Positions 8,168-35,912 are shown, counted from the stretch's first letter. The stretch: 55,619 bases of DNA from Christensenella sp. UBA5489 (GCA_002424095.1 DIPL01000020.1:10189-65807), one strand, 5' to 3'. Program-made: numbers and translations. Notes: generated by a model from the sequence alone, not told the origin.

Positions 8168-8300
8168 TTGCTATTTTATATCAATTAATTTAATTTAGAC
8201 TTTGAAAATCTTTGATTTTTAAATTTATTTTTGATTTGATTTTTCGTTTACAAAAAATAAAATACTTAAAAATAATTTATTTAGGGATTGTGTCTAAAAA

Positions 8301-8329
8301 CATACTGCTGGATAAGTATGCTTTGTTTT
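8301..8329 (+). terminator. weak intrinsic terminator after mreB-like gene
   Basis: CATACT-gctggata-AGTATG hairpin followed by CTTTGTTTT. Confidence 0.35.
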
Positions 8330-8440
8330 ACAATTTTTTATATTTTAATATCGTAAATATTTTTAAAAAACAAAAAATGACAATTTGTTCTTTTTGAATT
8401 TGTTATGTTTTATAATAAAATTTTTACGGAGAAAAAATTA

Positions 8441-19514: not shown

Positions 19515-19712
19515 TTAAATTAATTTATTTGGAACAACATCTCCGTTATAAACTTCTTCCGCGGCAATGCTGATTTCTTTTTTCTCGCTCGTTTCAAGTT
19601 CAGCAGGAATTGTCAATGCCAAATGTTTTGCCCTTTTTGCAACAAGGCAACAAAGCAGATAAACGTTGCCATTAACCTTTTTTAATAATTTTTCAATAGG
19701 CGGCTCAATCAT
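19515..19712 (-). CDS. rpoZ: RNA polymerase omega subunit
   Basis: 65 aa. The block PPIEKLLKKVNGNVYLLCCLVAKRAKHL is omega-like. SD AGAGG precedes the start. It lies 5 nt upstream of priA. Confidence 0.85.
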   Translation of the reverse strand: MIEPPIEKLLKKVNGNVYLLCCLVAKRAKHLALTIPAELETSEKKEISIAAEEVYNGDVVPNKLI

Positions 19713-19950: not shown

Positions 19951-20478
19951 TTAAATTAATATATACAAAATTATAAGAAAAAGAATAATCGTTAAAATAA
20001 CCAAAACAATTCTAGAAAACTTTTTTCTTCGTGCTTTCCACCATGCGTCTTTCGGCGTACTTGTGGTTCTATCTTTATCATCTATTAGAACATTCAAAAC
20101 ATTTTTTTTATTTTGTTTTATTTCTTCAACTTTCCTTTGACATTCATAAGCTTTTTCTAGTAATTCCTTAGTCGTTAAATTGTTCGTGACTGAAAGTTTC
20201 GCAAAGTTATATCCACCAACATTTTCAACCGTAAAAACATTTTCTTCATTAAATAAATCATTGTCCTTTATGCTGTTTTTATTAATACCGATTTCCGCTT
20301 TACAATTTCTGCATTTTAGATATTGAATATTACTAAAAATAACATCATTTTCAAATTTCCAACTTATCATTGCCCCGCAAAATGGGCAATACTTTAAATC
20401 GCTTTTGCCCTTCATAAATTTTAAACCATTTTTCTTGGATTTAAAAAATTTTTTGCTTTTCATTATTGCCTTTTTCAT
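19951..20478 (-). CDS. tail-anchored zinc-ribbon protein (hypothetical)
   Basis: 175 aa with a basic N-terminus, the pairs CPFC...CRNC (zinc-ribbon spacing), a helical middle part and a C-terminal TM helix IVLVILTIILFLIILYILI. No clear SD. Confidence 0.5.
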   Translation of the reverse strand: MKKAIMKSKKFFKSKKNGLKFMKGKSDLKYCPFCGAMISWKFENDVIFSNIQYLKCRNCKAEIGINKNSIKDNDLFNEENVFTVENVGGYNFAKLSVTNNLTTKELLEKAYECQRKVEEIKQNKKNVLNVLIDDKDRTTSTPKDAWWKARRKKFSRIVLVILTIILFLIILYILI

Positions 20479-20495
20479 TGCTTAAATTTCATAAT

Positions 20496-20524
20496 ATTAT
20501 ATCAAAGCATTTTAATTTAATCAA
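20496..20524 (-). promoter_or_regulatory. possible extended -10 promoter for zinc-ribbon ORF
   Basis: On the minus strand: TTGATT, 17 nt, TATAAT, with TGA immediately upstream of the -10. The ATG is only 17 nt downstream. Confidence 0.3.
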
Positions 20525-20565
20525 TTATTTTAATAATTATTTTAGATATGATTGTATGATTTTTA

Positions 20566-20597
20566 AAACTAAAAAAAGCATTTTTAATGCTTTTTAG
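20566..20597 (-). terminator. intrinsic terminator ending the actin-like operon
   Basis: Perfect 10-bp stem AAAAAGCATT / AATGCTTTTT (20573-20582 and 20586-20595) followed by a T-run on the minus strand. It lies 17 nt after the stop of the P/Q-rich gene. Confidence 0.65.
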
Positions 20598-20613
20598 AAG
20601 AAAAAAGATAAGT

Positions 20614-21312
20614 CTATTCTTTTTCTTGTAATAATTGTAGTAAATAATCTCTACCAGCCGCCTTATCCCCTTCTGAGCCACTACTTGCACCTGGCAAGAC
20701 ATCATCAAAACTTGGTTTTGGACTCGTCTGAGATGTGGAATTTTTTATATCGGGAGCAGGTTGTGGCGCAGTTGGGGCAGGTTGAGGTTGCTGCGGTTGC
20801 TGCGGCACCTGTGGTTGTGGTGGTTGTTCTTGTGGCGCTTGTGGCGCTGGTGGTGGTGTTATTGGGTCAGTTGGTATAAATTGAGGTTGTGGAGCAGGAG
20901 CATACTGTGGCTGCGGTGCAAATTGCGGTGCTGGTATGAACTGAGGTGTCGGCATACTTGGTGGCATTTGCATCGAGCTATACATTCGATTATAAAAATA
21001 TGGATTATTGAAAGTCGAAGCAGTTGGCATTTTAGGAACATATTGTGCATATTGTTGCAAATTTATTCCATGCTCAAATAGCCTTTGAGAACCTTGCGAA
21101 ACGACAATTTCTTCCAGTTCTAGTAATTTATTAGCAATTATATTTGTAAACATATCATTGCTACGGTCTAAACTTACTACATTTAAAGCACTTTGCAATA
21201 AGTTTACAATTGATAAAATGCTGTTTACTGTTTCTTTATTAGTCCCGTAGGACATTAGCGATCTGTCGGCTTCAATATTTCTTAAAATATCTTCAAATTC
21301 TCTTAATAGCAT
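20614..21312 (-). CDS. P/Q-rich protein: helical N-domain, ~95-aa Pro/Gln linker, short C-terminal helix (hypothetical)
   Basis: 232 aa. Residues ~94-188 are almost only P/Q/A/F/T. The C-terminus is GRDYLLQLLQEKE. SD AAGGAA precedes the start. It is co-directional with and 89 nt downstream of the actin-like gene. Confidence 0.6.
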   Translation of the reverse strand: MLLREFEDILRNIEADRSLMSYGTNKETVNSILSIVNLLQSALNVVSLDRSNDMFTNIIANKLLELEEIVVSQGSQRLFEHGINLQQYAQYVPKMPTASTFNNPYFYNRMYSSMQMPPSMPTPQFIPAPQFAPQPQYAPAPQPQFIPTDPITPPPAPQAPQEQPPQPQVPQQPQQPQPAPTAPQPAPDIKNSTSQTSPKPSFDDVLPGASSGSEGDKAAGRDYLLQLLQEKE

Positions 21313-21401
21313 AAAAGTTCCTTATTGTATAAATTATAATTTATCAGTTAAATTATAAACTAAAAATTCACAATTCAAAGATATAAAAAACGTTAAATGC
21401 A

Positions 21402-22445
21402 TTAGAACTGCCCTAAGAGATAAAATCCTCGAACGTTTGCCATAACTGCATTTTCCTGAATTATTAAACGAGGATCGTTAAATAATTCTTTTAAGTATTT
21501 TTCATATTGAAGAGAGCCGCCACCAGTTAAAATGATGCGATAGAATTTATTAAATTCAAGTCCTAATCCCATAGTTGACTCATGTACTCGTTTTGCTTGA
21601 ATTGCTTTATGTTTTTCAACGAATTTTGACAAGTCATATTTGCCGAACGGAGTTTCAACAACCTCAGATTCAAGTAATGCTAAATCTAATTCGTGCGGAT
21701 TTAATGTATAGATGCTTGCTTCGGGATATTTGTTATTAACATCTTCTTGCAAATCTGAAATATAATCCGAAACACCGATGTCAAACCCGAACGTACCTCT
21801 AACACGAAATGATTCCAAAACAGCCAAATCTAATGAACCCCATCCAATATCAACAACAAGTGCACGTTGTGCCAAATATTTTTGATTTAATTCTTTGGTT
21901 GTAGAGTCATAAACAAAATTATAAAGCGTGCCGAGTGGTTGTGGAACGACAATAACTTCGACAATTTCAAAGGTAATTGTATCAACCTGATCCCACTTAA
22001 CAGATTTTAAAGTATGTTCTCCAATAAGATTTGCCTTTATTGCTTCTTTAATTGCCTCATTTTTAGCCAAAGAGCTAGGAAGACCTGTTACTAGTCTGAT
22101 TTTTTCTTTCGTGTTTGGTTCAAGAATGGACGTTATACCGATAAGTGCTTCAATTTTAAAAGCATTTGAATCGTATCTTCCTTTTGCACGGCTACCACTA
22201 CCCATTGCGGCAATGTCGCCAACCTCGTATACTTCCTTATTATATACATACATTTGATAGTCGGTTTTAAAGGAATATACTAAACCAGCATCATTGATTT
22301 CTTTTATCGTATTACGATATTTTAAATTCTTTTCATTGTCTGTCCAAACTTTAATTGTGGAATTGGCAACGTCAATACCCACTACCTTTGTATAGTTTTT
22401 TCCTTCATACGGCGACTTTTCACTGGTCTTTTTTTCTTTTTTCAC
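21402..22445 (-). CDS. ParM/StbA (Alp) family actin-like ATPase
   Basis: Collinear with plasmid R1 ParM. VVGIDVANSTIKVW matches FIDDGSTNIKLQW. IRLVTGLPSS matches the LPLTEYY region. VVPQPLGTLY matches VMPESIPAGY. ALVVDIGWGSLDLAVL matches LLIIDLGGTTLDISQV. IILTGGGS matches VMVIGGGA. MANVRGFYLLGQ matches LVNGMYLIG. GTG start with GGGAGGG 7 nt upstream. Confidence 0.85.
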   Translation of the reverse strand: MKKEKKTSEKSPYEGKNYTKVVGIDVANSTIKVWTDNEKNLKYRNTIKEINDAGLVYSFKTDYQMYVYNKEVYEVGDIAAMGSGSRAKGRYDSNAFKIEALIGITSILEPNTKEKIRLVTGLPSSLAKNEAIKEAIKANLIGEHTLKSVKWDQVDTITFEIVEVIVVPQPLGTLYNFVYDSTTKELNQKYLAQRALVVDIGWGSLDLAVLESFRVRGTFGFDIGVSDYISDLQEDVNNKYPEASIYTLNPHELDLALLESEVVETPFGKYDLSKFVEKHKAIQAKRVHESTMGLGLEFNKFYRIILTGGGSLQYEKYLKELFNDPRLIIQENAVMANVRGFYLLGQF

Positions 22446-22473
22446 TATTTTTCCCTCCCAAAAATATTAAAGA

Positions 22474-22941
22474 TTATAATTTACTTAAAACATAGCCAAA
22501 ACTATATTGTTTTGTTTTTTGACTATTTATATTTAAGGCAATTCCATATTCATTTGTTTTATTATAAGATTTAAACATAGATATCAATCCGACTTTCTTG
22601 AAGTTAGCAACATCAAAAACAAAAACATCGAGGACTTTGTCATTTTTATAGCATACAACCGCTACGTAACTATTGGGCTTTTCCACGTCAATCAAGTTTT
22701 TAGGAAATTTTACTATATTTGTCGAAGTGTCGTGTCCTATAATAAGAAATTCTCCTATAGTTCTACCTTTACTATCCGAAGTTCTTAGTGTAAAATTACC
22801 TTTTAAACTGTCAAAAATCGAATAATTTGTTTGAGAGCATAAGTATTTAAAATCTTTTTCAGCCTGCTGATTTATCGCACTATCTAAAAATCCGTCATCA
22901 ACAAACCCTTCTTTTAACTTTCTAATATCTTCTAGTTGCAT
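22474..22941 (-). CDS. hypothetical cytoplasmic protein (155 aa, ORFan)
   Basis: SD AAGGAGGG. It starts 12 nt after the previous stop, and the actin-like gene starts 28 nt after its own stop. I recognise no family motif. Confidence 0.55.
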   Translation of the reverse strand: MQLEDIRKLKEGFVDDGFLDSAINQQAEKDFKYLCSQTNYSIFDSLKGNFTLRTSDSKGRTIGEFLIIGHDTSTNIVKFPKNLIDVEKPNSYVAVVCYKNDKVLDVFVFDVANFKKVGLISMFKSYNKTNEYGIALNINSQKTKQYSFGYVLSKL

Positions 22942-22953
22942 ACTCCCTCCTTA

Positions 22954-23460
22954 TTATTTTTTACTATTGCTTGATTTTGTTTTTGCTTTTTTCGTTTCAG
23001 GTTTTTCTTTGTTATTATTCTTATCTCCTATTTGACCTTTGTCGCCTTCATTGCTTGAATATTGCGACATAATTTTTTTAAGGTCAAATTCCCCGTCAGT
23101 GTCTTCTTCCTCAGGTTCTTCATAAGTTTTAGATTTAAAATTACGTGAATTTATTCTTTCATTCTTTGATTGATTTACAGCAGTTGTAAATTTTTTTTCA
23201 AAATCCTCCATTTCTTCCTCCGAAATTTTACTTTTTTCCTGCTTTTGTTTTTCAAAAATTTTAGATGCTAAATTCTGGCTCTTTTCTTTTTCATTTGACT
23301 TTTTTTCATTTTGCTCTTTTATATCTGTAATCTTTTTATTAATTTTGTCTTTAAAAACAAAAAAATATAAAAGCACTGCGGCCGCAATTAAAACAACGAT
23401 TATAATTAAAATCGTAAATAATACTGGATTATTAAGCAAGCTATCCATAAGACACCTCAA
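22954..23460 (-). CDS. bitopic membrane protein with long K/E-rich charged tail (hypothetical)
   Basis: 168 aa with one N-terminal TM helix (VLFTILIIIVVLIAAAVLLYFFVF). Positive residues follow the helix, so the tail is predicted to be cytoplasmic. SD GAGGTG. Confidence 0.55.
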   Translation of the reverse strand: MRCLMDSLLNNPVLFTILIIIVVLIAAAVLLYFFVFKDKINKKITDIKEQNEKKSNEKEKSQNLASKIFEKQKQEKSKISEEEMEDFEKKFTTAVNQSKNERINSRNFKSKTYEEPEEEDTDGEFDLKKIMSQYSSNEGDKGQIGDKNNNKEKPETKKAKTKSSNSKK

Positions 23461-23489
23461 CCAAATATATTTTTTTACTATTCTTGTGA

Positions 23490-23518
23490 ATTATACACTA
23501 ATTTGAAAAGATTGTAAA
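23490..23518 (-). promoter_or_regulatory. sigma-A-like promoter for the 168aa-155aa-actin-PQ unit
   Basis: On the minus strand: TTTACA, 17 nt, TATAAT, about 30 nt upstream of ATG 23460. Confidence 0.45.
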
Positions 23519-23552
23519 GTAAATAAATTAATATTTCATAAAAAATTGTAAA
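23506..23552 (-). repeat. two 13-nt direct repeats TTTACAAT(T/C)TTTT, 34 nt apart, one overlapping the -35 box
   Basis: Read directly: copies at 23506-23518 and 23540-23552 (plus-strand coordinates), matching at 12 of 13 positions. Confidence 0.6.
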
Positions 23553-23588
23553 TCGAGTTTTTATTAATTTCCCTTAAAACAACAATAT

Positions 23589-24221
23589 TTAACCTCTTTC
23601 TGATTCATTTTTACCCACCAACTTTTTTATCTCAGGTTTGCCGTTTTCTATTTTATATGTATATTTAATTTCATCGTCATCACTGAATTCAAAAAATGTT
23701 TCCAGAAATTTTCCGTCATAACTATACATTGTCAATACGTGCATTGTTTTATCTCCGTGAGTATCGTCATAACTTACTATAATTTTTTCATCGTTTACAA
23801 AATGAATCTCATTGAGTTTTGTAAAATTAATTATAATTTCATTTACTTTTTCTTTTTCTGTTAAACTAGCAAAAGATATTTGAGAAACTACACTTTTACT
23901 ACTGCTCTCGCCAATAACTAAAAAAACATTTTCTTTTAATCTCTTTAATTTAATATTAAGTTTTGCCGATATATCTGAAAGTTGCCATGCTTTACATAAT
24001 TTGTCGTTAAATAAAACAATTTTATAATAATTCTCATTAAAACGTTTTATTTTGTTAACAAGCACAGAAATATCGTCATAGGAATATAATGTGGACTTGT
24101 ACGTTGTTTTTTCGGTTATCTCTTTGATATAAGAGCCGCCTTTAAACTTGTGTACATCATCTTCCACAGTTGTCTTTTCCGTCATTTTAATTTCAGTGTC
24201 TTCGACAAAAAAATTTGCCAC
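23589..24221 (-). CDS. hypothetical cytoplasmic protein (210 aa, ORFan)
   Basis: GTG start with AAGGA 6 nt upstream, 21 nt after the stop of the 1631-aa gene. No TM helix or signal peptide and no recognised motif. An alternative ATG lies at 24185. Confidence 0.5.
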   Translation of the reverse strand: MANFFVEDTEIKMTEKTTVEDDVHKFKGGSYIKEITEKTTYKSTLYSYDDISVLVNKIKRFNENYYKIVLFNDKLCKAWQLSDISAKLNIKLKRLKENVFLVIGESSSKSVVSQISFASLTEKEKVNEIIINFTKLNEIHFVNDEKIIVSYDDTHGDKTMHVLTMYSYDGKFLETFFEFSDDDEIKYTYKIENGKPEIKKLVGKNESERG

Positions 24222-24242
24222 ATCTTATCCTTTTATTTTTAG

Positions 24243-27200
24243 TTATTTTTTTGATTTTTTTCTACGTTTCATTTCGGCTTTAACATCTTCATCTGTAACT
24301 TGACCAACATCCTTGCCTTCACGCAAATCTTTCATAAATGAACTGGTATCCATTTTATAACGATTTAATTCCATACTTTGAAGTTCGGCTTTTATAACCT
24401 TTCTTTTTCTATTATTTAAGACTGAGAAAATAATTAGCAACGCAAGAAGTCCTGGAACAATTATGCTAACTAATATTATTGCAGTAAGTATAGTTCCATT
24501 AAGTTGAGTTTCAACCATACTGATTAAATTATTGCCATATTCTTCAAACCAGCTTTCCGTGATTGTCAATGTTATTGAATTATCTCTAACAACGGCATAA
24601 TCAGAATTTTTAAGTTCTTCAATACTGACATTGTTAATTGTCCAGTTTTTGACAACTTGACCGCTTGCAGGTGTGAACATAATAACAACTTCATCTCCCA
24701 CTTTAAAACTTTCGGCGCTAATATCCATTTCGCCACCACCTTTTACTTCGGGTGTGAAATCAATATCATAAATAATATCAGCAAATTCTAAAAGTAGAGT
24801 TCTATCATTTTTCAAGGTTATATTTGCAATGTTTGGATTTAATAAATCCTTTTCCGAACTGCTTAGTGTTTTGAAAGGTATGAAATCAAAATGTGTGTTT
24901 TCAGAAACTTCGATTTGAAGTTTTGTTCCTATATCAAAATTGTTTATTGCTGGATTTGAAAGTTCATCATATTCGCCAGTTTCCGAATTATAAATCTTGA
25001 TTATAAAACTTCCCATATCTTGTTGTTCATCGGGAATTATCACATTTAATTCATATTGTTTTACATAATATGCAATTAATATAATTTGATTGTTTATTGT
25101 TCTATAAGTTTCCAAAAAGTTCGTGTCAACTGTTTGCTCTGCGGCTATTTTTTCGTTTTCGCCATTTTTAAATATAAATTTTTCAAACCTATAACTTTCG
25201 GGAGCGACTAGATTTTCAATGCTTATAATGTCATTAAGTTTTGCTCTATCTGCTTCAATGTCATTAATTAATAATTTTATATCTGCACCAGTCAGTGCAT
25301 CTTCATTATTTATGTCAATTGTTTTTAGAACAATTTCATAAATATCTTCATTAAAAGTAGCCGTTACGTCGACGAGAGAGTTCAAAACAATGTTTAAGTT
25401 CTTTTCATCGGATTCATTGATAACGCCGCACTCAGAGCCGTTAAAGTCTGCAAAAAGATAGTAAGTGTTAGGTTTTGCAGTAATATTTATAACCGTGCCT
25501 TTTTCGAAATACATATTCTCTATTTCACTATAAGAAACAGGAGCAGACCCGTCTGTCTTAACAACGTTGATATCAAGCGAACCGCCAGCACCGCTGGAAA
25601 TATTCACCATATAATCAATTGCATATTCTGCAATTAAAATAACTTTTTCACCGTCGATATATTTGTTCAAAAAGTTCTCATCAATCACATTATTATTTTC
25701 AAATATATATTGGTTTTCGCCATTCATTCCATAATTAAATTCTTCTAATTGATTTGTTATATGGTTATACATTTTCCACGAAACAAATCTATAACGTGAA
25801 TTGCCTTCTAAATTTTCAACACTCGGTGCAAAAAAGAAAATGTCCGCTTTTTCATTTAAAAGTAATGGACCGTTATTCGGTCCTTCACTTATTTCAGGAA
25901 GATTCCCTGGTTTAGAGCCATCTTTTAATTGAACAATGAGTTCAACGATATACTCAATTTTTTCAAAGACAACTTCGATATTTATTTCTATGTCAGTTGC
26001 TGTTTGTGGAAAATCTGATAGATTAACAAAGTCTAAATTTAACATTGCAATATTATTTGTCGCAAGTAAATCAGGACAATAAGGAACAAAAGGGAAAAAA
26101 GTTTCTCCATCTTTATAAGAATATGTTACCTTAAATTCTGTTGTTTTATAGTGGTCAATCGGCAAGCCTTCCAAGATAATCTCAATGCCATCTTGTAATG
26201 TTATTTGCCCCGAATAACTTACATCTCTGTCTGCAATTTTAATCTTGCCTAAACTTGCATCATTTGTACTTGCAGAAACGGCAATATCAGTCGTTTTTTT
26301 GGCGGCTCTGATTTTAAGTTCGCCGAAAATCCAATATGTTCCACTTATTTCAGTTTCAGGGTCAACAAAAGTTACATATTCATCAATGAATTCTTGATCA
26401 ATAGGATAATCAAGCAAACTTAATGTTTTTGATTTTCCTACTAACGGAACCCACTTGCCTGCATTTTCATCTATTTGTTTCCACACTTGCCAGCCTACAA
26501 AATCTCCTTCGCCAGTAACCGTTAATTCAAAATGATTATTATAAATGCTTTCAATTGTAAAACCACCCGCAAAACCGTCTTTTTCATATGTTGCTTCATA
26601 TTCATAAGCCAAACTACCAACTCCGGCAGGTTCAATTAGTAGTTTATAATATTTTGTTGTTTCAAAGTTTGCATATAAAGTAATGTCGGAATTTTGCAAA
26701 ACAACGGGTGTTCCAATTGGATAAAATTCATAATTTTCATCTTGTGAATTTAAACTTGTCGACCAGCCTATGAAAGTTTTGCCTGCTTTATATTCTATTA
26801 TATTTAAAGATTCCTTATAAGTCGCTCTATAAATATTCTCAGTGCCATCGACATTTAAAGTAACTGTAATTCCGAAAGTTTTTAAATATGGTGCACCATT
26901 GTTGCCTGTTCCGTTTTCATCGGGCATTAGCCACGCACCTGTTTCGCTAAAATCATAACCTACACTTTCATATGTCGCTTGCGTTTGAAGTTCTTGTTTA
27001 CTTAATATTCTAGAAATATCAGCACCCTCTTCGCCTTCTTCTTTATCAATAATTATAAGATAGCCCGATGTACCACTGTCAAGAGCATGACTAATACTCC
27101 CGAATAAGTTTAAATTATTTGATGGGTCAAACTCACCTTCATTAGTTAAAACAATTTCATCTTCATCATTTATACTAAAAGCTTTTATAAGTTCAACAAT

Positions 27201-29138
27201 CTGTGTTCTGTTCGCTTTTGTTGCATAATTAATTCTGCTTATAATTCCACCAGCATTATTTGTGCCTTGATACGCCTCGCCAGCATTAATACATTCATTA
27301 ATTTCAATCTCTCTTATGCGATGGTTTTCTTCATCAGCTCCGTCATTGCTTGTGTTAAATGTAAGATAGCCTATTAAACCACCGTTATAACTTGCCCCCA
27401 TTACAGAGCCAGTGTTATAACATCTTAAAAGAGAGGAATCTACATAAAATGTCGGATGAATATATAATTGTGCATAACTAACCAAACCGCCAGCATAACT
27501 ACTGCTTCCAATAATATCTCCTATATTAAAACTTTCTTCAATTTGAAATGAACCTCTTATATCTCCCAATAAACCGCCAACATTGCTCCCTTCAATATTC
27601 CCTAAATTATATGAGTTTGTAATGCTTACATTGCCAATATTTGTTGTTGTATTATAAGGCATACACGCAACCAAACCTGCGACATAACTATTTAATACCG
27701 CAGTTATGTCGCCTGAATTATAAGAATTTAAAATTTCAAGGTTTCCATAATAATGATATGCGACTAAACCTGCCGAGTAACTGCTACCATCGTTTGCTAA
27801 ATTCGATTTATTGTAAACTCTGTCTAGTGTCGCATTCCCATATAGAAAAGTTATAATACCTGACATATAACTTCCAGAACTCAATTCTCCCGCATTATAG
27901 CAGTTTTCCATTATCAATTTAAAACTTTGAGTTGTCGAATAATTAACACTGGTTATAAGACCGCCGACATAATTAGTTGCAATAAGTTGTCCGATGTTGT
28001 ATGAATTCTTTATGCTTACATCATCTCGGATATTACCATCGCCTACATAGCCAACTAAACCTGCCGCATTTATGCCTTCAACAATCCCTTCATTATAACA
28101 ATTTTCAATATCAACGCCATAATAAGCCCTACCAACCAATCCAGCGCAATAACTCGCAGCAACAACATTTCCTTCAATACTTCCCGAGTTATAAGAATCT
28201 ACTAATTTCACATAATTCGCATATGCAACAATTCCCGCAAGGTAATTTTGAGCATATATAGTTCCATTGTTTACAGCATTTAAAATTGTAATGTTCTGAT
28301 TATCTCTATAAGGCTGTTCACCCCCAACTGTTGTGCTTAATTCAATATGCGCTACAATTCCTGCCGCATAAGAGCCAGTGTTATTTATTGACGCATTATT
28401 TACAACATTACTGATTTCAACGGTGTTATCTAATGGGATAAGTCTAGAAACAAAACCTGCAACATAACTCGAACCTGTATTCATTGTTTCAATATATCCA
28501 TTAACTGTTACGTTGTCGATTTTAAGACCGCCATAAACATGACCTACAATTGCGGCATAATAAGCGCCTGAGCCTTGTATGTAAACATTGTCAAACGTTA
28601 AGTTTCTGAATTCATTTTGCTTTATTATTGGATGACTCGGATTACTACGAGCATAAGCAATCAAGCCTTGATAACTTCCCGACGCTTCCAAAATTGTTAA
28701 GTTTTTAATAGCGAATCCTTTACCGTCAATGATTCCCATAAAACTACGCTCATTTAAATTTTCAGTACCCATAGGAAGCCAATTTTTTCCAGCCAAATCA
28801 ATGTCATTGCCAAGTTCATAAAATTTTAAAGTTTCACTGCCCCTATTATTATTTCTGGTTAAATATGAAATAAATGCCAAATCATACGGCGTTTTAATTA
28901 TAAGAGCAGTTTCTCTCGTTGTACCGCCTCTGCCTGTGTTATAGTCTTTATAAGCCAAATCATAGTTGCGGAAATTATTTTCGTCGAAACCATCAAGCCA
29001 TTCCCCTTCCACACTTGGCGCTCCCTCACAAAATGCAGTATATTTGGAATTTATCTGCCCAAAAGCACTTGCCGTAATGGCAACGATTACCAAAAAAATT
29101 ATTGCTAAAATACAATATCTTTTCTTTGCAATGTACAT
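24243..29138 (-). CDS. giant surface protein: signal peptide, GLUG-type repeat array, Listeria-Bacteroides/InlB B-repeats, C-terminal TM anchor plus cytoplasmic tail
   Basis: 1631 aa with a signal peptide (..AITASA/FGQ). I count about 14 (Y/N)xxG(L/I)(V/I)xx units by eye (e.g. YCAGLVGRAYYGVDIENCYNEG). One clear Flg_new-type repeat is present (KTFIGWSTS...DITLYANF), followed by several divergent B-repeat-like modules (FVGWQVW, FVSWKMY). TM helix at aa ~1550-1574, then NNRKRK and a 51-aa tail. No LPXTG. Confidence 0.9.
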   Translation of the reverse strand: MYIAKKRYCILAIIFLVIVAITASAFGQINSKYTAFCEGAPSVEGEWLDGFDENNFRNYDLAYKDYNTGRGGTTRETALIIKTPYDLAFISYLTRNNNRGSETLKFYELGNDIDLAGKNWLPMGTENLNERSFMGIIDGKGFAIKNLTILEASGSYQGLIAYARSNPSHPIIKQNEFRNLTFDNVYIQGSGAYYAAIVGHVYGGLKIDNVTVNGYIETMNTGSSYVAGFVSRLIPLDNTVEISNVVNNASINNTGSYAAGIVAHIELSTTVGGEQPYRDNQNITILNAVNNGTIYAQNYLAGIVAYANYVKLVDSYNSGSIEGNVVAASYCAGLVGRAYYGVDIENCYNEGIVEGINAAGLVGYVGDGNIRDDVSIKNSYNIGQLIATNYVGGLITSVNYSTTQSFKLIMENCYNAGELSSGSYMSGIITFLYGNATLDRVYNKSNLANDGSSYSAGLVAYHYYGNLEILNSYNSGDITAVLNSYVAGLVACMPYNTTTNIGNVSITNSYNLGNIEGSNVGGLLGDIRGSFQIEESFNIGDIIGSSSYAGGLVSYAQLYIHPTFYVDSSLLRCYNTGSVMGASYNGGLIGYLTFNTSNDGADEENHRIREIEINECINAGEAYQGTNNAGGIISRINYATKANRTQIVELIKAFSINDEDEIVLTNEGEFDPSNNLNLFGSISHALDSGTSGYLIIIDKEEGEEGADISRILSKQELQTQATYESVGYDFSETGAWLMPDENGTGNNGAPYLKTFGITVTLNVDGTENIYRATYKESLNIIEYKAGKTFIGWSTSLNSQDENYEFYPIGTPVVLQNSDITLYANFETTKYYKLLIEPAGVGSLAYEYEATYEKDGFAGGFTIESIYNNHFELTVTGEGDFVGWQVWKQIDENAGKWVPLVGKSKTLSLLDYPIDQEFIDEYVTFVDPETEISGTYWIFGELKIRAAKKTTDIAVSASTNDASLGKIKIADRDVSYSGQITLQDGIEIILEGLPIDHYKTTEFKVTYSYKDGETFFPFVPYCPDLLATNNIAMLNLDFVNLSDFPQTATDIEINIEVVFEKIEYIVELIVQLKDGSKPGNLPEISEGPNNGPLLLNEKADIFFFAPSVENLEGNSRYRFVSWKMYNHITNQLEEFNYGMNGENQYIFENNNVIDENFLNKYIDGEKVILIAEYAIDYMVNISSGAGGSLDINVVKTDGSAPVSYSEIENMYFEKGTVINITAKPNTYYLFADFNGSECGVINESDEKNLNIVLNSLVDVTATFNEDIYEIVLKTIDINNEDALTGADIKLLINDIEADRAKLNDIISIENLVAPESYRFEKFIFKNGENEKIAAEQTVDTNFLETYRTINNQIILIAYYVKQYELNVIIPDEQQDMGSFIIKIYNSETGEYDELSNPAINNFDIGTKLQIEVSENTHFDFIPFKTLSSSEKDLLNPNIANITLKNDRTLLLEFADIIYDIDFTPEVKGGGEMDISAESFKVGDEVVIMFTPASGQVVKNWTINNVSIEELKNSDYAVVRDNSITLTITESWFEEYGNNLISMVETQLNGTILTAIILVSIIVPGLLALLIIFSVLNNRKRKVIKAELQSMELNRYKMDTSSFMKDLREGKDVGQVTDEDVKAEMKRRKKSKK

Positions 29139-29215
29139 AATCTACCTTCCTTCTTTTAACTGAATTGTTTAATATGCTTTTAATGTTTTATTTCCAATAG
29201 TTTCTATTTATTGTT

Positions 29216-32200
29216 TCATTTGTCTTTATCATCATTTTTTAAGTCAGATAAGAATTTTCCACGGTCTAAACCTAACTGCATTGTTGCACTTCTTTCTTTT
29301 GCCGCCATATACTGGGCTTTCTTTCTATTGTTTAAAATTATAAACAGTAAAATTCCTGCAAGGAGAATAGGAATTGTAATTCCGCCTGCTAAAAGAATTG
29401 TAAAATAAGTTGAATTCATCATTGTTTTAATTTCACTATTAAAATCAAGTCCGTAAGTATCAAGCCAGTTTTCATCAATTGTTATAACCAACGTATTATT
29501 GCTATATTTAACATTTTCTATTGCTTTTGCATCGTGCTCTATGCCGTTTTTATCAATTATCATCCACGATTTAATTTCATAACCACTGCTTACATTAAAT
29601 GAAACAGTCAATTTATCGCCGACACCGACTTTATCGCTACTGAACGTAATTTCGCCTTTTGCATTGCTTGTATCTGCTTTTTCTTCAATTTCAAAAACTT
29701 TTGAAACGAAGTTTAAAACTATATATCTGTTTGTTGTCAATGATAATTCAAGTGATTTATCAGCAGGAGTTAAAACATCGCCAAGTTCCATATCTACACC
29801 TGAAAAATCGACAAATTCGTAATATAATTCATTCGTAACTTCTGCTTCAATAATTAAAACTGTTCCGTACGCAAAATCTGTTTCGTCCGCTTCCACTTGG
29901 ACTTTTTGCTCGTCTACAACTTTAAATAATTTAAAAATTCCTTTTGAAGCATCAGAACTTTCAATATTTAAAGTATAAAGTTCAAAATATTTCGCAACAA
30001 CAATAATTTCATTATTTTCATTTGCGTATGTTTGAAGAAAATCTTTTGTAATATTTATATCAATTATAACGTTATTATCTGTTATATTAAATTTTTCCAA
30101 AGTTATTGGAATTAAAACTCCATCGACATTGAAATACCAACTACCGAAAACATAGCAGCCGTCCGCAATATCTTTATCTGCTTCAATTAAACCAATTGAA
30201 TAAATAACTGAGCCTTCAACAATTTTATTATTATTAACAGATGCAGAAACGTCGATATTGTTTTTTTCTAGAATATTACTTTCAACTAAATCTTGATTAT
30301 TGTTATCTATTATTTTTGAAATGATTGTATAATAGAAAGATTCAAATTCAACTGTTATAGAAGCATCACCATTTATACGAAAATCAGCAATATTATTTTC
30401 TATATTGACCGCATCAATGCCTGTAAATTCCACAAACCTTGAATTCGAATTCGGTGTGGCAATTATAATTATATTTGAATTTTCATCAATATAAGCTTGA
30501 TTATTTTTATCAATGGTTATGGCTTCGGTTTCGCCATTTTCTTCGCGGATATAAGCCTCAAAAGTGCCCTCTCCGTCGCCATTAGGATCAACCACAATTT
30601 CAAAAATATATCTTTCAACAAAAACTGCAAAAATCTCAATTTCCCCGTTTGTAATGAATTTATTTAAAAATTCTTCGGTGAATTTAGAACCTTCGGTATA
30701 GAAATATCTTTCATAAACTCCGACATTATTTAAAATTAAGAAATTTATAAATCGATAATTAAAGTTATCTGCAATACCAAAATTTATTAAATCTTCGCCT
30801 ATCTTAATTGTTGGCAAATTATCATCGCCCGTAACTAAGTCTGCCGTTTCAGTGGAAATCGCTGTTATTAAATCGTTTTTTACTTGATTAACCGTTATTG
30901 TATATTCAATTTCTTGGAAATTCAATTCAATGTTGTAACGCCCCGCCGTTAATATTGTGAAAGTACGTTCATCACCTGTTCCAGAAACAGTCAACATTGT
31001 GCTATAATCTGGAATTATTTCGCCTTTATTATCCCTTATTACAAAGTCCGTAAATTCATAATGATTTATAGGATTTATTTTTAATGTGAATGAATTTTCG
31101 CCAACGGCTGTTCCATAATCGGAAAGTAGCGTTCCAACTCTATATGATACGTCATCAACTTCAATTATTGCACGGTTTGAATATCCGCTTGCAAAGTCAA
31201 TTGAGATAAATGCTTTTGTTCCGATTGAAATAGGTCGAAATTTTATTGATTTTCTGCCTTCATCATCAACAAATGCCCACCTGTCGACGAAAGCATCATC
31301 TAAAATTCCACCAGTGCCAAGAAGAACAAGATTTTGCGGAGTTTCAACATAATAAACAAATTCTGATAAATTTGGGTCAAAAATTTCCCAATTTTGGAAA
31401 ATATCTCCTTCATTTGGACTTGCATACGCAATGACATCGGTCATACTTCTTTCAATATAGTGATCCGAAATAACGGTTTCTTCTGTGTTTTTTAAAACAC
31501 CAGTTCCAACTTCTATAAAGATTTTTTCAGGAGTCCAGATAGCATAGAGATGAAATGTATTACTAGAAGGTTCAATTGTTTCGTCGTAATAATACCTTTC
31601 TCCACTCCCATCAGTGTTTAAACTCCAATATGCAAAATCATAATATTTTCTTGTTGGCTTAGTAATCAATTTTTCAGTTATTAAAATTTGATTCCCGACT
31701 AAACTATTCACAGTTCCGAACTCATCATCTCCGCCATCATTATTATGAAATCGAATCTCACAAGGATACATATTTGTTAAAAAAGGTTTGCCTTCGTTAA
31801 AACTCTCAAAAATTGCCCAATAAGTTTTTTCACCTGTTTCAACGTCTTCGCCGTTAAAACTCCAATCGACATAAGTGTTTTCAGTTGCAAAATCTGCATC
31901 TGTGAATGTAGTTGAAGTGTTCCCTACAAAAGTTCCAGTCAAATTGCCATGAGTTGCTCCGCACTGTGCATAATCTCCATATCCATCAGGAGAGCCGTCT
32001 TTATCAACGGCATATAAACATTTGTCAATTGTAACAGTTAATGACATATCGTTAATAGAACCGTATAGCCCAATATATCCAACAAAACCTCCATATCTAT
32101 CAAAACTTAATGAGCCACTCTCAAATGTTTCCGTAAATTTTGCTATGTTATAACAAAATTGAATTTCAAGTGGCAATTCTGTCCCTCTTAAAGTTGAGTG

Positions 32201-35200
32201 GAGGTTGAAATATACTTCGCCAATAAATCCACCAATTCTTGTATTGCTGTCATAAACACTGCCGACAAAATTTCCTTCAAATGAAACATTTTTGATTTTA
32301 TATTCTAAATTATCGGAAACGTTTGAATACATTTCAATTCGACTTGCAATGCCACCAATGCGCTCGTTTCCGCAAATATCACCAGTTATCACTATATTAG
32401 ACAATTCAAGCCCGCCTCGATTATAACCAATGACACCTCCGACATAAGATGCCCTTTCATTATAGTTGAGAGTGCTTGAAACATTTGCATCGACAAAGCA
32501 TTCTGAAATCACTGTTGTTCCGTTGCTCGCTGTACGACCATAAGCATTATAAACCGCACCAACAATTCCGCCGACATAGTCTGCTTTTACTGCAATGTTT
32601 GAAACCTTGCATTTTATAATCTCAAAATTAACAGAATTATTTCCATATGCAACCAAACTACCTGCATAGTTTATATAACTTAATGCTCGTGGCGTGTTTT
32701 CCAAATTAATCTCAAAGGTATTCTCACATTCATTTAAAATTACATTTCTCGCAATACCAATTAAACCACCTAAATAGTACCATTCACTATACTCTGTACC
32801 ATCTGTGCTTGAATCCGAAAGTTGTCCGGTATTTTTTGAGTCTGTCAACTCAACAGTATCTCCGCTTTGATAGACTAAACCAGCAAGTCCACCAATTATT
32901 CTAGTTCCATTTCCCACTGGATTAATTAAATACGCATTGCAGGTTATTTTTCCGTTATTTACAACATCAGTACCATTTAGAATGCCAATCATACCAGCAA
33001 TGCCTGCTGCAAATTTACCTGTTACAGCACCATCGTTTGTTACTGAATTTAAAGTCAATGTTCCACTAGTATTACTTGCTCCTAAAATTCCACCAGCATA
33101 TCCATAATTATAATAAATAGTTCCTTCTATATCTTCTATTCCTGAATTACTTAAAATTTCTCCTGAATTTGTAACATTTGTTAAAATCACGTTCGCCAAA
33201 ACCCTAGCATAATTACAACCGATGATTCCACCCACAAATTGCCCTGTAATATTTCCTGTGTTTTGTGAATCTGAAATTTTCACTTGTGCTCCGGCAGAGT
33301 TGATATGACCAACAAGTCCGCCTGTTGCATAGTTATAATTTCCTGCATTTCGTGAAATGACCGTACTGGTTACATTTCCAGAATTTTGCGAATTTTTAAT
33401 ATTTAAAATTCCAGTGTTCATTAAGCCAATAAAACCGCCTGTATAATAAGACGTTGAATTGACTATGCCCGTATTTTCGGTTTCTTCTATATTAACAGTT
33501 TGTCTGCTTTGTCCGATTAAACCACCAACCGAACTTGTTCCTGAAACACTGGCATTATTTACGCAGTAGGTAGTAATGTCTCCAATTAAAGGTAAAATAT
33601 TTACAACCGAAGCCGTGTTTGCGTAGCCAATTAAACCACCGACATTGCTTACACCACTAACCGTTTTAGTATCCGAAGTTAGAACTCCTTTAAGAGTTAC
33701 AGAATAAGCACTTCCAATTATGCCACCGACATTATTTCCGATTCCTTCGACATTACCTAATTGCACTACATTTGAATAAACACCTCTTGCTGTCCCCACA
33801 ATGCCACCGACATAACTCTTTCCTTTGACATTTCCATTGTTTGTGAAATTTGAAATATTTGATTCAATTCTTAACATATTGCCCGACAAACCGCCGACAT
33901 TATTGCCATATGTAGAAATTTCTCCATTGTTAACTGAATCAACAACCGTTGTCAAGGCATTATTATATCCAAAAACCCCACCGACATATCTAGTTATTAT
34001 ATTTTCTTCACTATTTAAATAGCCAGTTGGAATTTGATATAAAACTTCTTCATCTTCTGTAAGTTCATTCGTTGTTTGATTATCAAATATTAAATTGGTA
34101 TTATTTATAAAATTGTCAATTGTATATGTGCTTGTTCCATAGGCATTGCCAACCGCTCCACCAACTATACTTCCCAGCAAAATTCCTTGATTTAAAGAAT
34201 TTATGATTTCAATTTTACTACCTGCCCCGGCGGACATTCCAATCACACCGCCCGTGCCTCTTATATCATTATATAAATATAATGGCGAACCTACAATTTT
34301 GCCATAATTTTCAAAATTCGTTACGATAATTTCACCGCCATTTGTATAGCCAATTGCACCGCCTGCTGATGCCCCGATGATTTCTGCTGTTAAAGTATTC
34401 TCCGAATTCGTTATTTCAGAATCTCTCCCCGTCCAAACACCAACCAAACCACCAACTCCGTTATATCCCGTTATATTTAAGGTGCCTTGAACCTTTCCGC
34501 TATTAGAACAATTATCAATCACGGTTTGATTGTCAACATATCCAATAAGACCGCCAATATTATATGTTTCAGATATTATTTCGGCACTGTTTGATGAATC
34601 CTGAGCATTTATTTTACTGCCTCTACCAACTAATCCTCCGAGTTCATTTCTACCTTCGACTTTTCCAGAATTCGTTACATTAATAAGTGTTGCATCGTAT
34701 GCACGACCAATAACTCCGCCTGCTCTATAACTTCCAACTTTAACATTGCCACTGTTCTCCGAGTCTATAACACTCAATTTTAAATTTATCATTGTCGAGT
34801 TTCCAATAAGACCACCGGCTACTGAATGTGTGCAGTCAATCGTACCATTGTTTGTTAAATTTTTAAAGGTTAACTCCCCTTCGCCTTGAACAACTGCTAC
34901 GATTCCGCCTGCGTAGATATCTCCTGAATTGTCTCTTTTTGCAATTATTGTTCCATTATTTGTTGCGTTTTCAATTATCGTATTACTGTTTCTTGCCACA
35001 ACACCAGCAACATAAGCCTTGCCGCGAATTTCCGTATTTGCGCTTACCGCTATATTCGTTATTTTGTTTATATCAAAATTTTCTGTTGTGTTTGCGAATG
35101 CAACAAACCCAGCAACATAGCTGCTTCCCTCCGCAGGAGTTGTCTGATTAAATGTTCCAACATAGCCGTCAACCGAAACATTATCAATTTTGACATTATA

Positions 35201-35821
35201 TGATTGCCCTGCAAAAAGTGCTGAATAATCTCTTAATCGTGCATCGACAATTCCATTTTCAATTGTGATATTTTTAAACTCTCCGCCTTCAATACCACCA
35301 AATAAACCGAAATAATTAGATGAATCTTCATAAATATAAAGATTTGATATTTTGTAATTATTGTCAGTATAAGTGCCAAATTCGTCGTAAATGCCGCCAT
35401 CATAGTTTCCTTTAAAGCGCCACTCATAAGTCGAAGCATTTGACGTTAATCCAATTGGCTTCCACATTTTACCATATAAATCAATATCTGCTGTTTGTTT
35501 GAAATATTTTCCTTCAAAATTATCTCTCTCTGTTGTTGTCGGCATTCTCGTTTTATATGAAACAAATGCCAAATCCTCGGCATTTGCAATTAAATAAGGG
35601 CTTTCGGAAGTGCCTTCGCCAGAGAGCGAATGCTCCGCAAGTCCTAAATCGTCATCAATCCATGTTTCAGTCGTTACTGGCGGGGGTGTAAATTCTGCTT
35701 TAAAAACGACTGCTTCATCTGTGCTTTTTAAGAACATAAAAAAATACATCCCGCACAAAAAAGTTACAAAAATAAACAATGATAATACGAGATTTTTGAA
35801 ATTTATTTTTGATGATATCAT
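29216..35821 (-). CDS. giant surface protein, paralogue of the 1631-aa protein (GLUG-type repeats, B-repeats, C-terminal TM anchor plus tail)
   Basis: 2201 aa with an N-terminal hydrophobic signal or anchor. I count about 30 xGG(L/I/V)(I/V)G units by eye between aa ~170 and ~1260. Flg_new repeat at aa ~1354-1431 (YDFAYWSLNTDGSGERYYYD...FHLYAIWTP). The C-terminal half is beta-rich. TM helix at aa ~2139-2163, then NNRKK and a 33-aa tail. SD GGAG 7 nt upstream. Confidence 0.9.
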   Translation of the reverse strand: MISSKINFKNLVLSLFIFVTFLCGMYFFMFLKSTDEAVVFKAEFTPPPVTTETWIDDDLGLAEHSLSGEGTSESPYLIANAEDLAFVSYKTRMPTTTERDNFEGKYFKQTADIDLYGKMWKPIGLTSNASTYEWRFKGNYDGGIYDEFGTYTDNNYKISNLYIYEDSSNYFGLFGGIEGGEFKNITIENGIVDARLRDYSALFAGQSYNVKIDNVSVDGYVGTFNQTTPAEGSSYVAGFVAFANTTENFDINKITNIAVSANTEIRGKAYVAGVVARNSNTIIENATNNGTIIAKRDNSGDIYAGGIVAVVQGEGELTFKNLTNNGTIDCTHSVAGGLIGNSTMINLKLSVIDSENSGNVKVGSYRAGGVIGRAYDATLINVTNSGKVEGRNELGGLVGRGSKINAQDSSNSAEIISETYNIGGLIGYVDNQTVIDNCSNSGKVQGTLNITGYNGVGGLVGVWTGRDSEITNSENTLTAEIIGASAGGAIGYTNGGEIIVTNFENYGKIVGSPLYLYNDIRGTGGVIGMSAGAGSKIEIINSLNQGILLGSIVGGAVGNAYGTSTYTIDNFINNTNLIFDNQTTNELTEDEEVLYQIPTGYLNSEENIITRYVGGVFGYNNALTTVVDSVNNGEISTYGNNVGGLSGNMLRIESNISNFTNNGNVKGKSYVGGIVGTARGVYSNVVQLGNVEGIGNNVGGIIGSAYSVTLKGVLTSDTKTVSGVSNVGGLIGYANTASVVNILPLIGDITTYCVNNASVSGTSSVGGLIGQSRQTVNIEETENTGIVNSTSYYTGGFIGLMNTGILNIKNSQNSGNVTSTVISRNAGNYNYATGGLVGHINSAGAQVKISDSQNTGNITGQFVGGIIGCNYARVLANVILTNVTNSGEILSNSGIEDIEGTIYYNYGYAGGILGASNTSGTLTLNSVTNDGAVTGKFAAGIAGMIGILNGTDVVNNGKITCNAYLINPVGNGTRIIGGLAGLVYQSGDTVELTDSKNTGQLSDSSTDGTEYSEWYYLGGLIGIARNVILNECENTFEINLENTPRALSYINYAGSLVAYGNNSVNFEIIKCKVSNIAVKADYVGGIVGAVYNAYGRTASNGTTVISECFVDANVSSTLNYNERASYVGGVIGYNRGGLELSNIVITGDICGNERIGGIASRIEMYSNVSDNLEYKIKNVSFEGNFVGSVYDSNTRIGGFIGEVYFNLHSTLRGTELPLEIQFCYNIAKFTETFESGSLSFDRYGGFVGYIGLYGSINDMSLTVTIDKCLYAVDKDGSPDGYGDYAQCGATHGNLTGTFVGNTSTTFTDADFATENTYVDWSFNGEDVETGEKTYWAIFESFNEGKPFLTNMYPCEIRFHNNDGGDDEFGTVNSLVGNQILITEKLITKPTRKYYDFAYWSLNTDGSGERYYYDETIEPSSNTFHLYAIWTPEKIFIEVGTGVLKNTEETVISDHYIERSMTDVIAYASPNEGDIFQNWEIFDPNLSEFVYYVETPQNLVLLGTGGILDDAFVDRWAFVDDEGRKSIKFRPISIGTKAFISIDFASGYSNRAIIEVDDVSYRVGTLLSDYGTAVGENSFTLKINPINHYEFTDFVIRDNKGEIIPDYSTMLTVSGTGDERTFTILTAGRYNIELNFQEIEYTITVNQVKNDLITAISTETADLVTGDDNLPTIKIGEDLINFGIADNFNYRFINFLILNNVGVYERYFYTEGSKFTEEFLNKFITNGEIEIFAVFVERYIFEIVVDPNGDGEGTFEAYIREENGETEAITIDKNNQAYIDENSNIIIIATPNSNSRFVEFTGIDAVNIENNIADFRINGDASITVEFESFYYTIISKIIDNNNQDLVESNILEKNNIDVSASVNNNKIVEGSVIYSIGLIEADKDIADGCYVFGSWYFNVDGVLIPITLEKFNITDNNVIIDINITKDFLQTYANENNEIIVVAKYFELYTLNIESSDASKGIFKLFKVVDEQKVQVEADETDFAYGTVLIIEAEVTNELYYEFVDFSGVDMELGDVLTPADKSLELSLTTNRYIVLNFVSKVFEIEEKADTSNAKGEITFSSDKVGVGDKLTVSFNVSSGYEIKSWMIIDKNGIEHDAKAIENVKYSNNTLVITIDENWLDTYGLDFNSEIKTMMNSTYFTILLAGGITIPILLAGILLFIILNNRKKAQYMAAKERSATMQLGLDRGKFLSDLKNDDKDK

Positions 35822-35883
35822 ATTTTCACTCCAAAATTATTAATTCTTACAAAATCCTACAAAATAATCTATAATATGATACA

Positions 35884-35912
35884 ATATTATCAATTATCGA
35901 TAAGAATGTCAA
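35884..35912 (-). promoter_or_regulatory. sigma-A-like promoter for the giant-protein operon
   Basis: On the minus strand: TTGACA, exactly 17 nt, TAATAT, about 60 nt upstream of ATG 35821. Confidence 0.55.

Follow-up and report, generated by a model that had tools for sequence, protein, structure and literature searches.

A Chromosomal Alp-Type Actin Module of Uncultured Gut Clostridia and Its Possible Link to Giant Surface Proteins

The actin-like systems of bacteria are known to function in the movement of DNA (ParM, AlfA, and Alp7A), in the positioning of magnetosomes (MamK), and in wall synthesis or cell shape (MreB and CorM/FcmB). The genes for ParR, AlfB, and Alp7R are located directly downstream of the genes for their ATPases, and the C-terminus of ParR docks onto a subunit of the ParM filament. 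Chromosomal relatives have been described in filamentous cyanobacteria, where CorMR is a ParMR system repurposed for the control of cell shape (bioRxiv 10.1101/2025.06.27.661541) and FcmBC is a ParM-derived cytoskeleton with a function that does not involve DNA (PMC12645912). The genome-encoded proteins Dh-cParM1 and Cb-cParM from the chromosomes of Firmicutes polymerize and are suspected of roles beyond plasmid segregation (PMC12270681). Our search of the literature returned these genome-encoded ParMs, CorMR, and FcmBC, and no actin-like protein that is tied to giant surface proteins. In this report, we analyze a 55,619-nucleotide stretch of DNA (the window) from Christensenella sp. UBA5489 (GCA_002424095.1, DIPL01000020.1:10189-65807). 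We propose, with evenly balanced confidence, that positions 20566-35912 constitute a chromosomal cytoskeletal module that is built around a new ATPase of the Alp/ParM type and whose filament would position giant surface proteins rather than DNA.

The ATPase, ALP347, is a protein of 347 amino acids with an actin fold that belongs to the Alp/ParM superfamily (21402..22445, minus strand). It matched the Pfam family ALP_N (PF17989) over the whole 148-position model with 62.3 bits (gathering score 26.3, E = 7.7e-17), and PHROG 691, a "partition protein", with a value of 3e-41. The first-pass annotation of the window had assigned this protein to the ParM/StbA type. The superfamily assignment stands, whereas StbA (PF06406) gave no match in the Pfam search, in which MreB-like_C and ParM_N were also weak and below threshold. 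The scores were found to be below the curated NCBIfam cut-offs for ParM (PRK13917, 78 versus 417 bits), PRTRC_D (84 versus 215), and FcmB (NF052678, 31.8 versus 300 bits). The best matches to sequences in the PDB were CorM (chain 9rmi, E = 9e-4, over only 160 residues) and Alp12 (E = 4e-3). The phosphate-1 (GIDVANST..K), phosphate-2 (VVDIGWG..D), and adenosine (TGGG) motifs are invariant in 15-37 family members, which is the pattern expected of an active ATPase, and the sequence predicts a protein that forms filaments in an ATP-dependent manner.

Homologues of ALP347 at 55-80% identity number 144, and they originate from metagenome-assembled genomes of gut, rumen, termite, and fermenter samples that are labelled Clostridia, Christensenellales, or Christensenellaceae. 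The contigs extend up to 685 kb, and many are 50-685 kb in length. The nearest plasmid homologue in PLSDB is 36% identical and adjoins conjugation genes on a plasmid of the Mycoplasmatota; the others are at most 28% identical. The best relatives in phage genomes are at most 27% identical, and no member of the family was found in IMG/VR with family-specific patterns. With no close relatives in PLSDB, phage genomes, or IMG/VR, we rejected a prophage or plasmid interpretation, and homologues of the actin gene and its PQ partner (below) are not found mainly on plasmids or prophages, an outcome that would have spoken against the first-pass annotation. Judged by its sequence, ALP347 represents a new, chromosomal subfamily of Alp-type actin, and the family is apparently inherited vertically.

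The genes around ALP347 were compared across approximately 40 loci related to the cassette in the window. WIN denotes the window's own locus, and the L-numbers denote the related loci that were compared with it. The ALP gene and the homologues of two further genes of the window, o210 and PQ232, are together and co-directional in essentially all of these loci; the exceptions are L032, where the PQ gene is inverted, and L030, where o210 is missing. This triad (o210 as a beta-rich scaffold, ALP347, and PQ232) is the core of the module, and it is passed on chromosomally in uncultured Clostridia of the gut. Seventeen loci, with ALP proteins 61-68% identical to that of WIN, contain the triad only. 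Their intergenic gaps are 8-26 nucleotides, and the typical order is glmM-glmS-dut, then o210-ALP-PQ, and then, mostly, gerA-gerB-gerC. A link to sporulation was considered and rejected, the gerABC, SpoIVA, or SpoIIR genes near some loci being scattered neighbors of spore formers that are not conserved across clades.

The second type of locus contains five genes in the order o210, KE168-like, o155-like, ALP, and PQ, and it is found in WIN, L001, L002, L004, L018, L022, L024-L029, and L031. Two genes for giant type-I surface proteins, G2201 (29216..35821, minus strand) and G1631 (24243..29138, minus strand), precede this cassette in the window. Adjacency of such giants was scored in the 11 five-gene lineages with enough context on both sides, and in nine of these the giants directly abut the cassette, with the G2201-type protein of the pair followed by the G1631-type (G2201 homologues come first in L001, L022, and L025-L029). 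The giants are upstream of the cassette in WIN, L001, L022, and L029 (938 and 789 amino acids in the latter) and immediately downstream of PQ in L025-L028 (approximately 1250-1340 amino acids each). L031 has a single downstream giant of 2490 amino acids, and in L002 the giants are 6 kb upstream. The flanking genes differ by lineage (proS/rpoZ, Fe-ADH/rplJ, Fe-ADH/PFL-AE, DUF1295-enolase, or ABC transporter/dut). Adjacency is kept although the housekeeping genes on either side change, so the giants travel with the cassette as the synteny around them decays. The presence of KE168 and o155 tracks that of the giants. The neighborhood postulated in the first-pass annotation therefore recurs in homologues, with the giants on either side of the cassette and with differing flanks, and the linkage is more than a single case, though L024 and L044 (below) are exceptions.

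In a neighbor-joining tree of the ALP proteins, rooted on the plasmid homologue and calculated without support values, the earliest branches are the giant-associated loci L030, L029, and L031/L032, and the loci with the triad alone form a clade nested within the tree. This order suggests that association with giants is the older state and that a single clade has since given it up. KE168, o155, and the giant pair accompany the triad both in the lineage to which the window belongs and in the family's deepest branches, and nothing in the surroundings of the triad resembles DNA cargo.

Two of the deep loci have unusual contents. L030 (1-12402) has the most divergent ALP homologue (55% identity) and a reduced gene set that consists of a SARP/BTAD-like protein of 255 amino acids, a KE-like transmembrane protein, ALP, and a Q-rich PQ homologue of 432 amino acids. 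Upstream are two LRR_5/Big_3 giants that have no C-terminal transmembrane anchor and are thus different, tail-less giants at the same position. In L032 (759-13113), a gene for a KwaA-like membrane protein adjoins that of the ALP homologue (58% identity), Eco57I-like and Barstar genes are found further downstream, and the region looks like a defense island. PQ is encoded on the opposite strand and is followed by o210, and an oppositely oriented giant of 2735 amino acids with a tail of nine residues is located upstream. In six other lineages, a gene of the Fe-ADH family lies directly upstream of o210 (L002 7098-8249, L024 7214-8317, L025 7491-8528, and L026-L028 at approximately 7226-8474). This gene overlaps o210 by 4 nucleotides in L025 and has a gap of zero in L027, and none of the six lineages has the giants immediately upstream of o210. 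The Fe-ADH gene may be an ancestral neighbor or may be co-transcribed.

G2201 (2201 amino acids) consists of a signal sequence, a GLUG-repeat region, InlB-type B-repeats, a transmembrane helix (approximately 29333-29413), and a tail of 38 residues (29219-29332). G1631 (1631 amino acids) has a transmembrane helix at approximately 24417-24497 and a cytoplasmic tail of 57 residues (24246-24416). In both proteins, a hydrophobic signal sequence is found at the N-terminus, and the single transmembrane helix near the C-terminus is followed by a short basic tail. Pfam Glug was matched by G2201 with 27 bits (cut-off 20.5), and Flg_new_2 was matched by G1631 and G2201 with 40 and 30 bits, respectively (cut-off 23.6). 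The two proteins are 32% identical over 565 amino acids (E = 1e-31). They are thus the paralogous, bitopic GLUG/B-repeat giants that had been described at first.

The short tails of the giants had also been described as conserved, and this holds for the G1631 type, in which conservation of the tail is roughly double that of the ectodomain. The tails are 45-70% identical to the WIN tail, and the adjoining 500 amino acids of the ectodomain are 22-38% identical. The motif of this tail across lineages is ..AEL....F...(S/G)F(I/M)xDL(K/R)xGKxVGQVT(D/K)EDVK..MK.., in which the core DL.GK.VGQ is invariant. The G2201-type tail ends in a short amphipathic hLxxLxxD helix. As a reciprocal test, the pattern GK[NDS]VGQVT[DK], built from an alignment of six tails, was searched against 241 million metagenome records, and 13 loci were confirmed. 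The cassette is present in five of the six loci that have usable context on both sides, all from the same species groups as the loci already found, and in the remaining loci the contig stops on the side that could contain the cassette. Tail-type giants are uncommon, and in most cases, with exceptions, they are linked to the cassette. The G1631 tail resembles the WH2 sequence, LLxxIxxGxxLKxV; Pfam gave no support, with no family at E <= 10 for four tails or for the C-terminus of PQ, and a WH2-type actin-binding motif was rejected.

The gene for o210 (23589..24221, minus strand) encodes a cytoplasmic all-beta protein of 210 amino acids. It had been listed as an ORFan that trails the giants, a description that does not fit the comparison, where it is the most constant neighbor of the actin gene. 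In the AlphaFold2 model, residues 42-203 form a 14-stranded all-beta domain with a predicted local distance difference test (pLDDT) score of approximately 90, and the N-terminus is disordered and contains a conserved short strand, FVEDTEIK. Foldseek searches with this model returned only weak, partial matches to beta-propellers (best E = 0.02, TM-scores of 0.2-0.4) and no significant fold in the PDB, and for this reason no function is given to o210. An exhaustive profile search of 1.84 billion proteins identified 51 clusters of this family. The o210 domain is N-terminal in all 51, and some members add acidic or K/E-rich disordered extensions without a Pfam domain. In the long forms (L029 7441-8613, L031 7552-8730, P0162, and P0184), the acidic or K/E-rich disordered C-terminal extension is 150-300 amino acids in length, and some of these proteins end in an amphipathic helix, LSRLKEMLSEE or LNKFLRRLRTEKE. 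These end helices resemble the C-terminus of PQ (DYLLQLLQEKE) and the ends of the G2201-type tails (FLSDLKNDD and LKKLREDMD), and the like helices of the three proteins may be a shared docking motif.

PQ232 (20614..21312, minus strand; 232 amino acids) is a plausible candidate for the filament adaptor, by analogy and on the basis of where its gene is located, how the protein is built, and the invariance of its C-terminal helix. In almost every related locus, the PQ gene follows the ALP gene directly, and its position is like that of ParR, AlfB, and Alp7R. AlphaFold2 predicts an N-domain of three helices (residues 1-90, pLDDT approximately 85) with no N-terminal strand, a disordered P/Q-rich stretch of approximately 120 residues, and a helix at the C-terminus. 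The prediction is confident for the N-domain and this last helix only, because the profile search returned just eight fragments and the alignment is shallow. The C-terminal amphipathic helix, GRDYLLQLLQEKE (20617-20655, minus strand), is invariant among relatives, with the end motif GRD(Y/F)(L/I)xxLL, while the linker varies from P/Q/M-rich to E/K-rich. The N-domain is acidic in 26 orthologues (isoelectric point, pI, of 4.4-6.2). PQ232 had no match in Pfam, among PDB sequences, or by fold, Foldseek having returned generic helical bundles with E > 1, and searches of PDB sequences with o210, PQ232, and o155 gave no meaningful match.

KE168 (22954..23460, minus strand) is, from its sequence and its relatives, a single-pass membrane protein of 168 amino acids with a conserved LLNNP motif, a transmembrane helix (approximately 23353-23424), and a long, disordered, K/E-rich cytoplasmic tail that contains two short conserved motifs, LAxNVFxE and a GFDVMxQFG-like sequence. 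Its true start is likely the ATG at 23448. Homologues were found in all of the five-gene loci, and no specific family was matched in Pfam or NCBIfam. The small soluble protein o155 (22474..22941, minus strand; 155 amino acids) is found together with KE168. Homologues were located with tblastn in the WIN-type loci, L029, L031, L004, and L018, and there was no match in Pfam, PDB, PADLOC, or NCBIfam. An anti-phage defense system was rejected, since PADLOC gave only weak matches to KE168 that were driven by its transmembrane segment.

The window was also searched for the hallmarks of a DNA partition system. Neither a ribbon-helix-helix (RHH) adaptor nor any integrase, phage, or conjugation gene was found in the window, and no replication or mobility gene is present among the window genes. 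No non-coding repeat family of at least three copies, as expected for a centromere, was detected in the window or in seven related loci; the direct and inverted repeats that were considered as centromere candidates in these sequences are chance pairs or coding repeats. An RHH or basic adaptor domain is not found in PQ232, the N-domain of which is acidic and made of three helices, and o210 is all-beta. The absence of an RHH-type ParR, a centromere array, and genes for replication, integration, phage, or conjugation, as first noted, is confirmed by these searches of the window.

In the mechanism that we propose, ALP347 would form ATP-dependent filaments under the membrane. The C-terminal helix of PQ232 would dock onto the filament in the manner of ParR on ParM, and the N-domain of PQ232 would bind a partner. 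KE168 would tether the assembly to the membrane via the short motifs of its disordered tail, the tails of the giants would be the handles on the side of the cargo, and o210 and/or o155 would be connectors. The docking sites for the tails and the KE168 motifs would be the folded soluble parts, namely ALP, the beta domain of o210, o155, and the N-domain of PQ232. The filament would then position, cluster, or move the giants or their membrane patch and would have no part in DNA segregation. In the sister clade, which has no giants, this core would presumably act on other cargo or have a general cytoskeletal role.

A number of points weigh against this proposal. It is drawn from gene neighborhood, conservation, and predicted architecture only. 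None of the 17 triad-only loci contains giants, KE168, or o155 within 10 kb, so the core function of the filament cannot depend on the giants. L024 has a five-gene cassette and no tail-type giant within 10 kb. Conversely, L044 (2650-10213) contains both giants in full, each tail type being represented (1266 and 1253 amino acids), between a dnaB-like gene and an infA-rpsM-rpsK-rpsD-rpoA-rplQ cluster, with no ALP cassette nearby, which indicates that giants can be unlinked from the cassette or can exist as extra copies. Several cases of adjacency come from related lineages, and there are fewer independent events than loci. The genomes are rich in other giants, with unrelated ones near the cassette in L022, L024, and L030. 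Conservation of the G2201-type tail does not exceed that of the ectodomain (18-36% versus 25-29%), and to that extent the early description of the tails as conserved does not stand. No known actin-binding motif was found with Pfam in the tails of the giants or in the C-terminus of PQ. Finally, the movement of a membrane-anchored giant through a Gram-positive wall presents a difficulty. The link between filament and giants that was originally suggested is thus supported by comparative linkage in nine of 11 lineages, but the core partners of the actin are o210 and PQ232, not the giants.

The main rival, which we consider possible though somewhat unlikely, is that the triad is a housekeeping filament for shape, division, or sporulation and that the giants, KE168, and o155 are mere neighbors. 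The 17 loci in which the triad stands alone, with glmM-glmS-dut and mostly gerABC as flanks, fit this explanation, as do the cassette without giants in L024 and the giants without a cassette in L044. CorMR and FcmBC provide a precedent, and CorM is the best match in the PDB. However, the giants remain adjacent to the cassette after a shift from upstream to downstream and after the loss of flanking synteny, KE168 and o155 co-vary with the giants, and a conserved cytoplasmic tail needs a cytoplasmic partner. The family is also no FcmB equivalog (32 bits versus a cut-off of 300). A general cytoskeletal role may in addition be an ancestral or parallel function of the filament that we propose to position the giants.

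A more specific form of our proposal is that the filament is mechanically joined to the tails of the giants via PQ232, KE168, and o210/o155. Polymerization or treadmilling would then cluster, polarize, or translocate adhesins on Gram-positive gut Clostridia. We regard such adhesin-actin coupling as doubtful, and the analogy with gliding Mollicutes, offered in the first-pass annotation, as pure speculation.

It is improbable that there is no system at all, with the adjacency the outcome of shared ancestry or of chance amid many genes for giant adhesins and with small open reading frames (ORFs) that are functionally unrelated. Many of the loci are phylogenetically close, and unrelated giants (LRR_5/Big_3 or Big_2/fn3) are found near the cassette in L022, L024, L030, and L032. 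Against this explanation, giants with such tails are rare, with 13 loci among the metagenome records, the G2201-type then G1631-type order is kept on a single strand with short gaps, and in linked loci with differing flanks the ALP identity is as low as 61-65%. The pair order, common strand, short gaps, preservation of adjacency through rearrangement, and scarcity of the tail motif make chance adjacency unlikely. DNA partition is also unlikely, and its concrete form, a domesticated type II ParMRC-like system in which PQ232 or o210 would bind the centromere as an unorthodox adaptor and which would segregate the chromosome or an episome that escaped detection, is the least probable of these explanations, since membership in the ALP_N/ParM superfamily, the PHROG "partition protein" match, an adaptor-sized gene directly downstream of the ATPase as for ParR, AlfB, and Alp7R, and the existence of ParMR cassettes in Firmicutes genomes (PMC12270681) are countered by the lack of an RHH or helix-turn-helix domain, an all-alpha, acidic PQ N-domain (pI 4.4-6.2 in 26 loci), the lack of iterated non-coding repeats in the window and seven related loci, the lack of replication or mobility genes and of close plasmid or phage relatives, and scores far below the ParM equivalog cut-off.

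Positions 19951-35821 contain nine ORFs, all on the minus strand and between two housekeeping blocks, with coordinates that agree with those of the first-pass annotation. One flank contains rpoZ, priA, def, and fmt, and the other contains proS, lepB, ychF, iPGM, and SpoIIE. These flanks indicate a chromosomal context of the low-G+C (approximately 31%), spore-forming Clostridia type. The gaps of 77 nucleotides between the giants and of 21 nucleotides between G1631 and o210, both reported before, follow from the ORF coordinates. Scans of the window for tRNA and Rfam elements found none. Two promoters and a terminator had been predicted, and sites are present at all three positions. A promoter-like site precedes G2201 (35884..35912, minus strand; TTGACA-17-TAATAT with an extended TG), and another (23490..23518, minus strand; TTTACA-17-TATAAT, 11 of 12 matches) is located in the 128-nucleotide gap between o210 and KE168, which is likewise 80-180 nucleotides in relatives. 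Both are matches to the consensus only, and they are consensus-level evidence because such matches are frequent in DNA of 31% G+C (119 observed in the window versus 82 expected). The cassette ends with a terminator-like A+T hairpin and U run (20566..20597, minus strand). This hairpin is weak (-8.1 kcal/mol, z = -1.8), and it was passed over by the terminator scan because it has too few G-C pairs.

The 89-nucleotide spacer between ALP and PQ contains a perfect inverted repeat of 10 bp, TTATAATTTA-N5-TAAATTATAA (21334..21358, minus strand). This spacer is 8-26 nucleotides in most relatives and 60-90 nucleotides with a hairpin in WIN, L001 (11023-11098), L024, L027, and L028, the sequences of the five hairpins being unrelated to one another. 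The repeat may be an RNA hairpin, an attenuator, an RNA-stability element, or an operator that tunes the ratio of filament to adaptor.

The cassette is followed by Zn175 (19951-20478, minus strand), a protein of 175 amino acids with a Lar-like CxxC...CxxC zinc ribbon and a C-terminal transmembrane anchor. The profile matches (Pfam Lar_restr_allev, 1.6e-5; TIGR03655, 4e-5) are both below cut-off, and the gene has its own promoter-like site (20524-20496). It had been counted as part of the envelope module, but no homologue is present in any of the approximately 40 related loci, and we therefore consider Zn175 to be lineage-specific and outside the module. Further along the same strand, rpoZ (RNA polymerase omega, 65 amino acids, approximately 19515-19712, minus strand) was below the cut-off of the ORF list. 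It is located just upstream of priA and is preceded by a perfect TTGACA-17-TATAAT promoter match (19807-19779). An ORF of 106 codons on the plus strand (20761-21081), rich in W, R, and L, is the antisense of the P/Q-rich linker of PQ232 and is an artefact, not a gene. The housekeeping block also contains an ORF of 442 amino acids (9564-10892, minus strand) with no Pfam match and a C-terminus rich in lysine, serine, and threonine.

What is new here is an Alp-type actin subfamily that is chromosomal and has two constant partners not described before, o210 and PQ232. The module comprises four protein families without known relatives (o210, o155, KE168-type, and PQ232-type). A filament with giant, membrane-anchored partners would, if the proposal is true, add a new class of cargo for bacterial actins and be the first bacterial candidate for an inside-out link between cytoskeleton and adhesin. 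Coupling of adhesins to actin, if true, would serve to organize adhesion sites or provide surface motility of a new kind. The module is carried by Clostridia from the guts of humans, ruminants, and termites, which are abundant though uncultured and in which giant adhesins probably mediate attachment to the host or to particles. The short interaction motifs make the hypothesis testable with peptides and purified ALP.

Among the systems with which the module can be compared, the type II ParMRC systems (ParM/ParR/parC of plasmid R1, and Alp7A/Alp7R, AlfA/AlfB, and Alp12 in Firmicutes) share with it an ATPase of the ALP_N superfamily and a small partner gene immediately downstream, with a conserved end helix that could insert into a filament subunit. 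In contrast, the module described here is chromosomal and apparently vertical, with at most 36% identity to plasmid homologues. The N-domain of PQ is acidic and all-alpha rather than RHH, there are no centromere repeats, and there are extra partners (o210, KE168, and o155) with membrane proteins as the neighboring cargo candidates. The genome-encoded cParMs differ in having recognizable ParR-like genes, together with parC in Cb-cParCMR, and no link to surface proteins has been reported for them (PMC12270681). CorMR and FcmBC are likewise chromosomal, ParM-derived filaments, with a partner made of helices that are separated by a disordered region and an ATPase with an N-terminal basic extension. 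However, the similarity is remote, the phylum is another, and there are no counterparts of o210, KE168, o155, or the giants.

The apicomplexan glideosome, the Agl-Glt/MreB focal adhesions of Myxococcus, and Gli349/Gli521 of Mycoplasma mobile share with the proposed module only the concept of an adhesin joined to an internal filament or motor. None of their components is homologous, the likeness is architectural, and no evidence of a motor or of motility is seen here. The closest functional analogy would be MamK-MamJ (McaA/McaB), although no sequence relationship was detected and the candidate cargo here would be plasma-membrane giants of a Gram-positive gut anaerobe. There, too, a filament positions membrane-bound cargo via acidic or repetitive disordered adaptors and membrane-anchored partners, as ALP347, PQ232, and KE168 are predicted to do.

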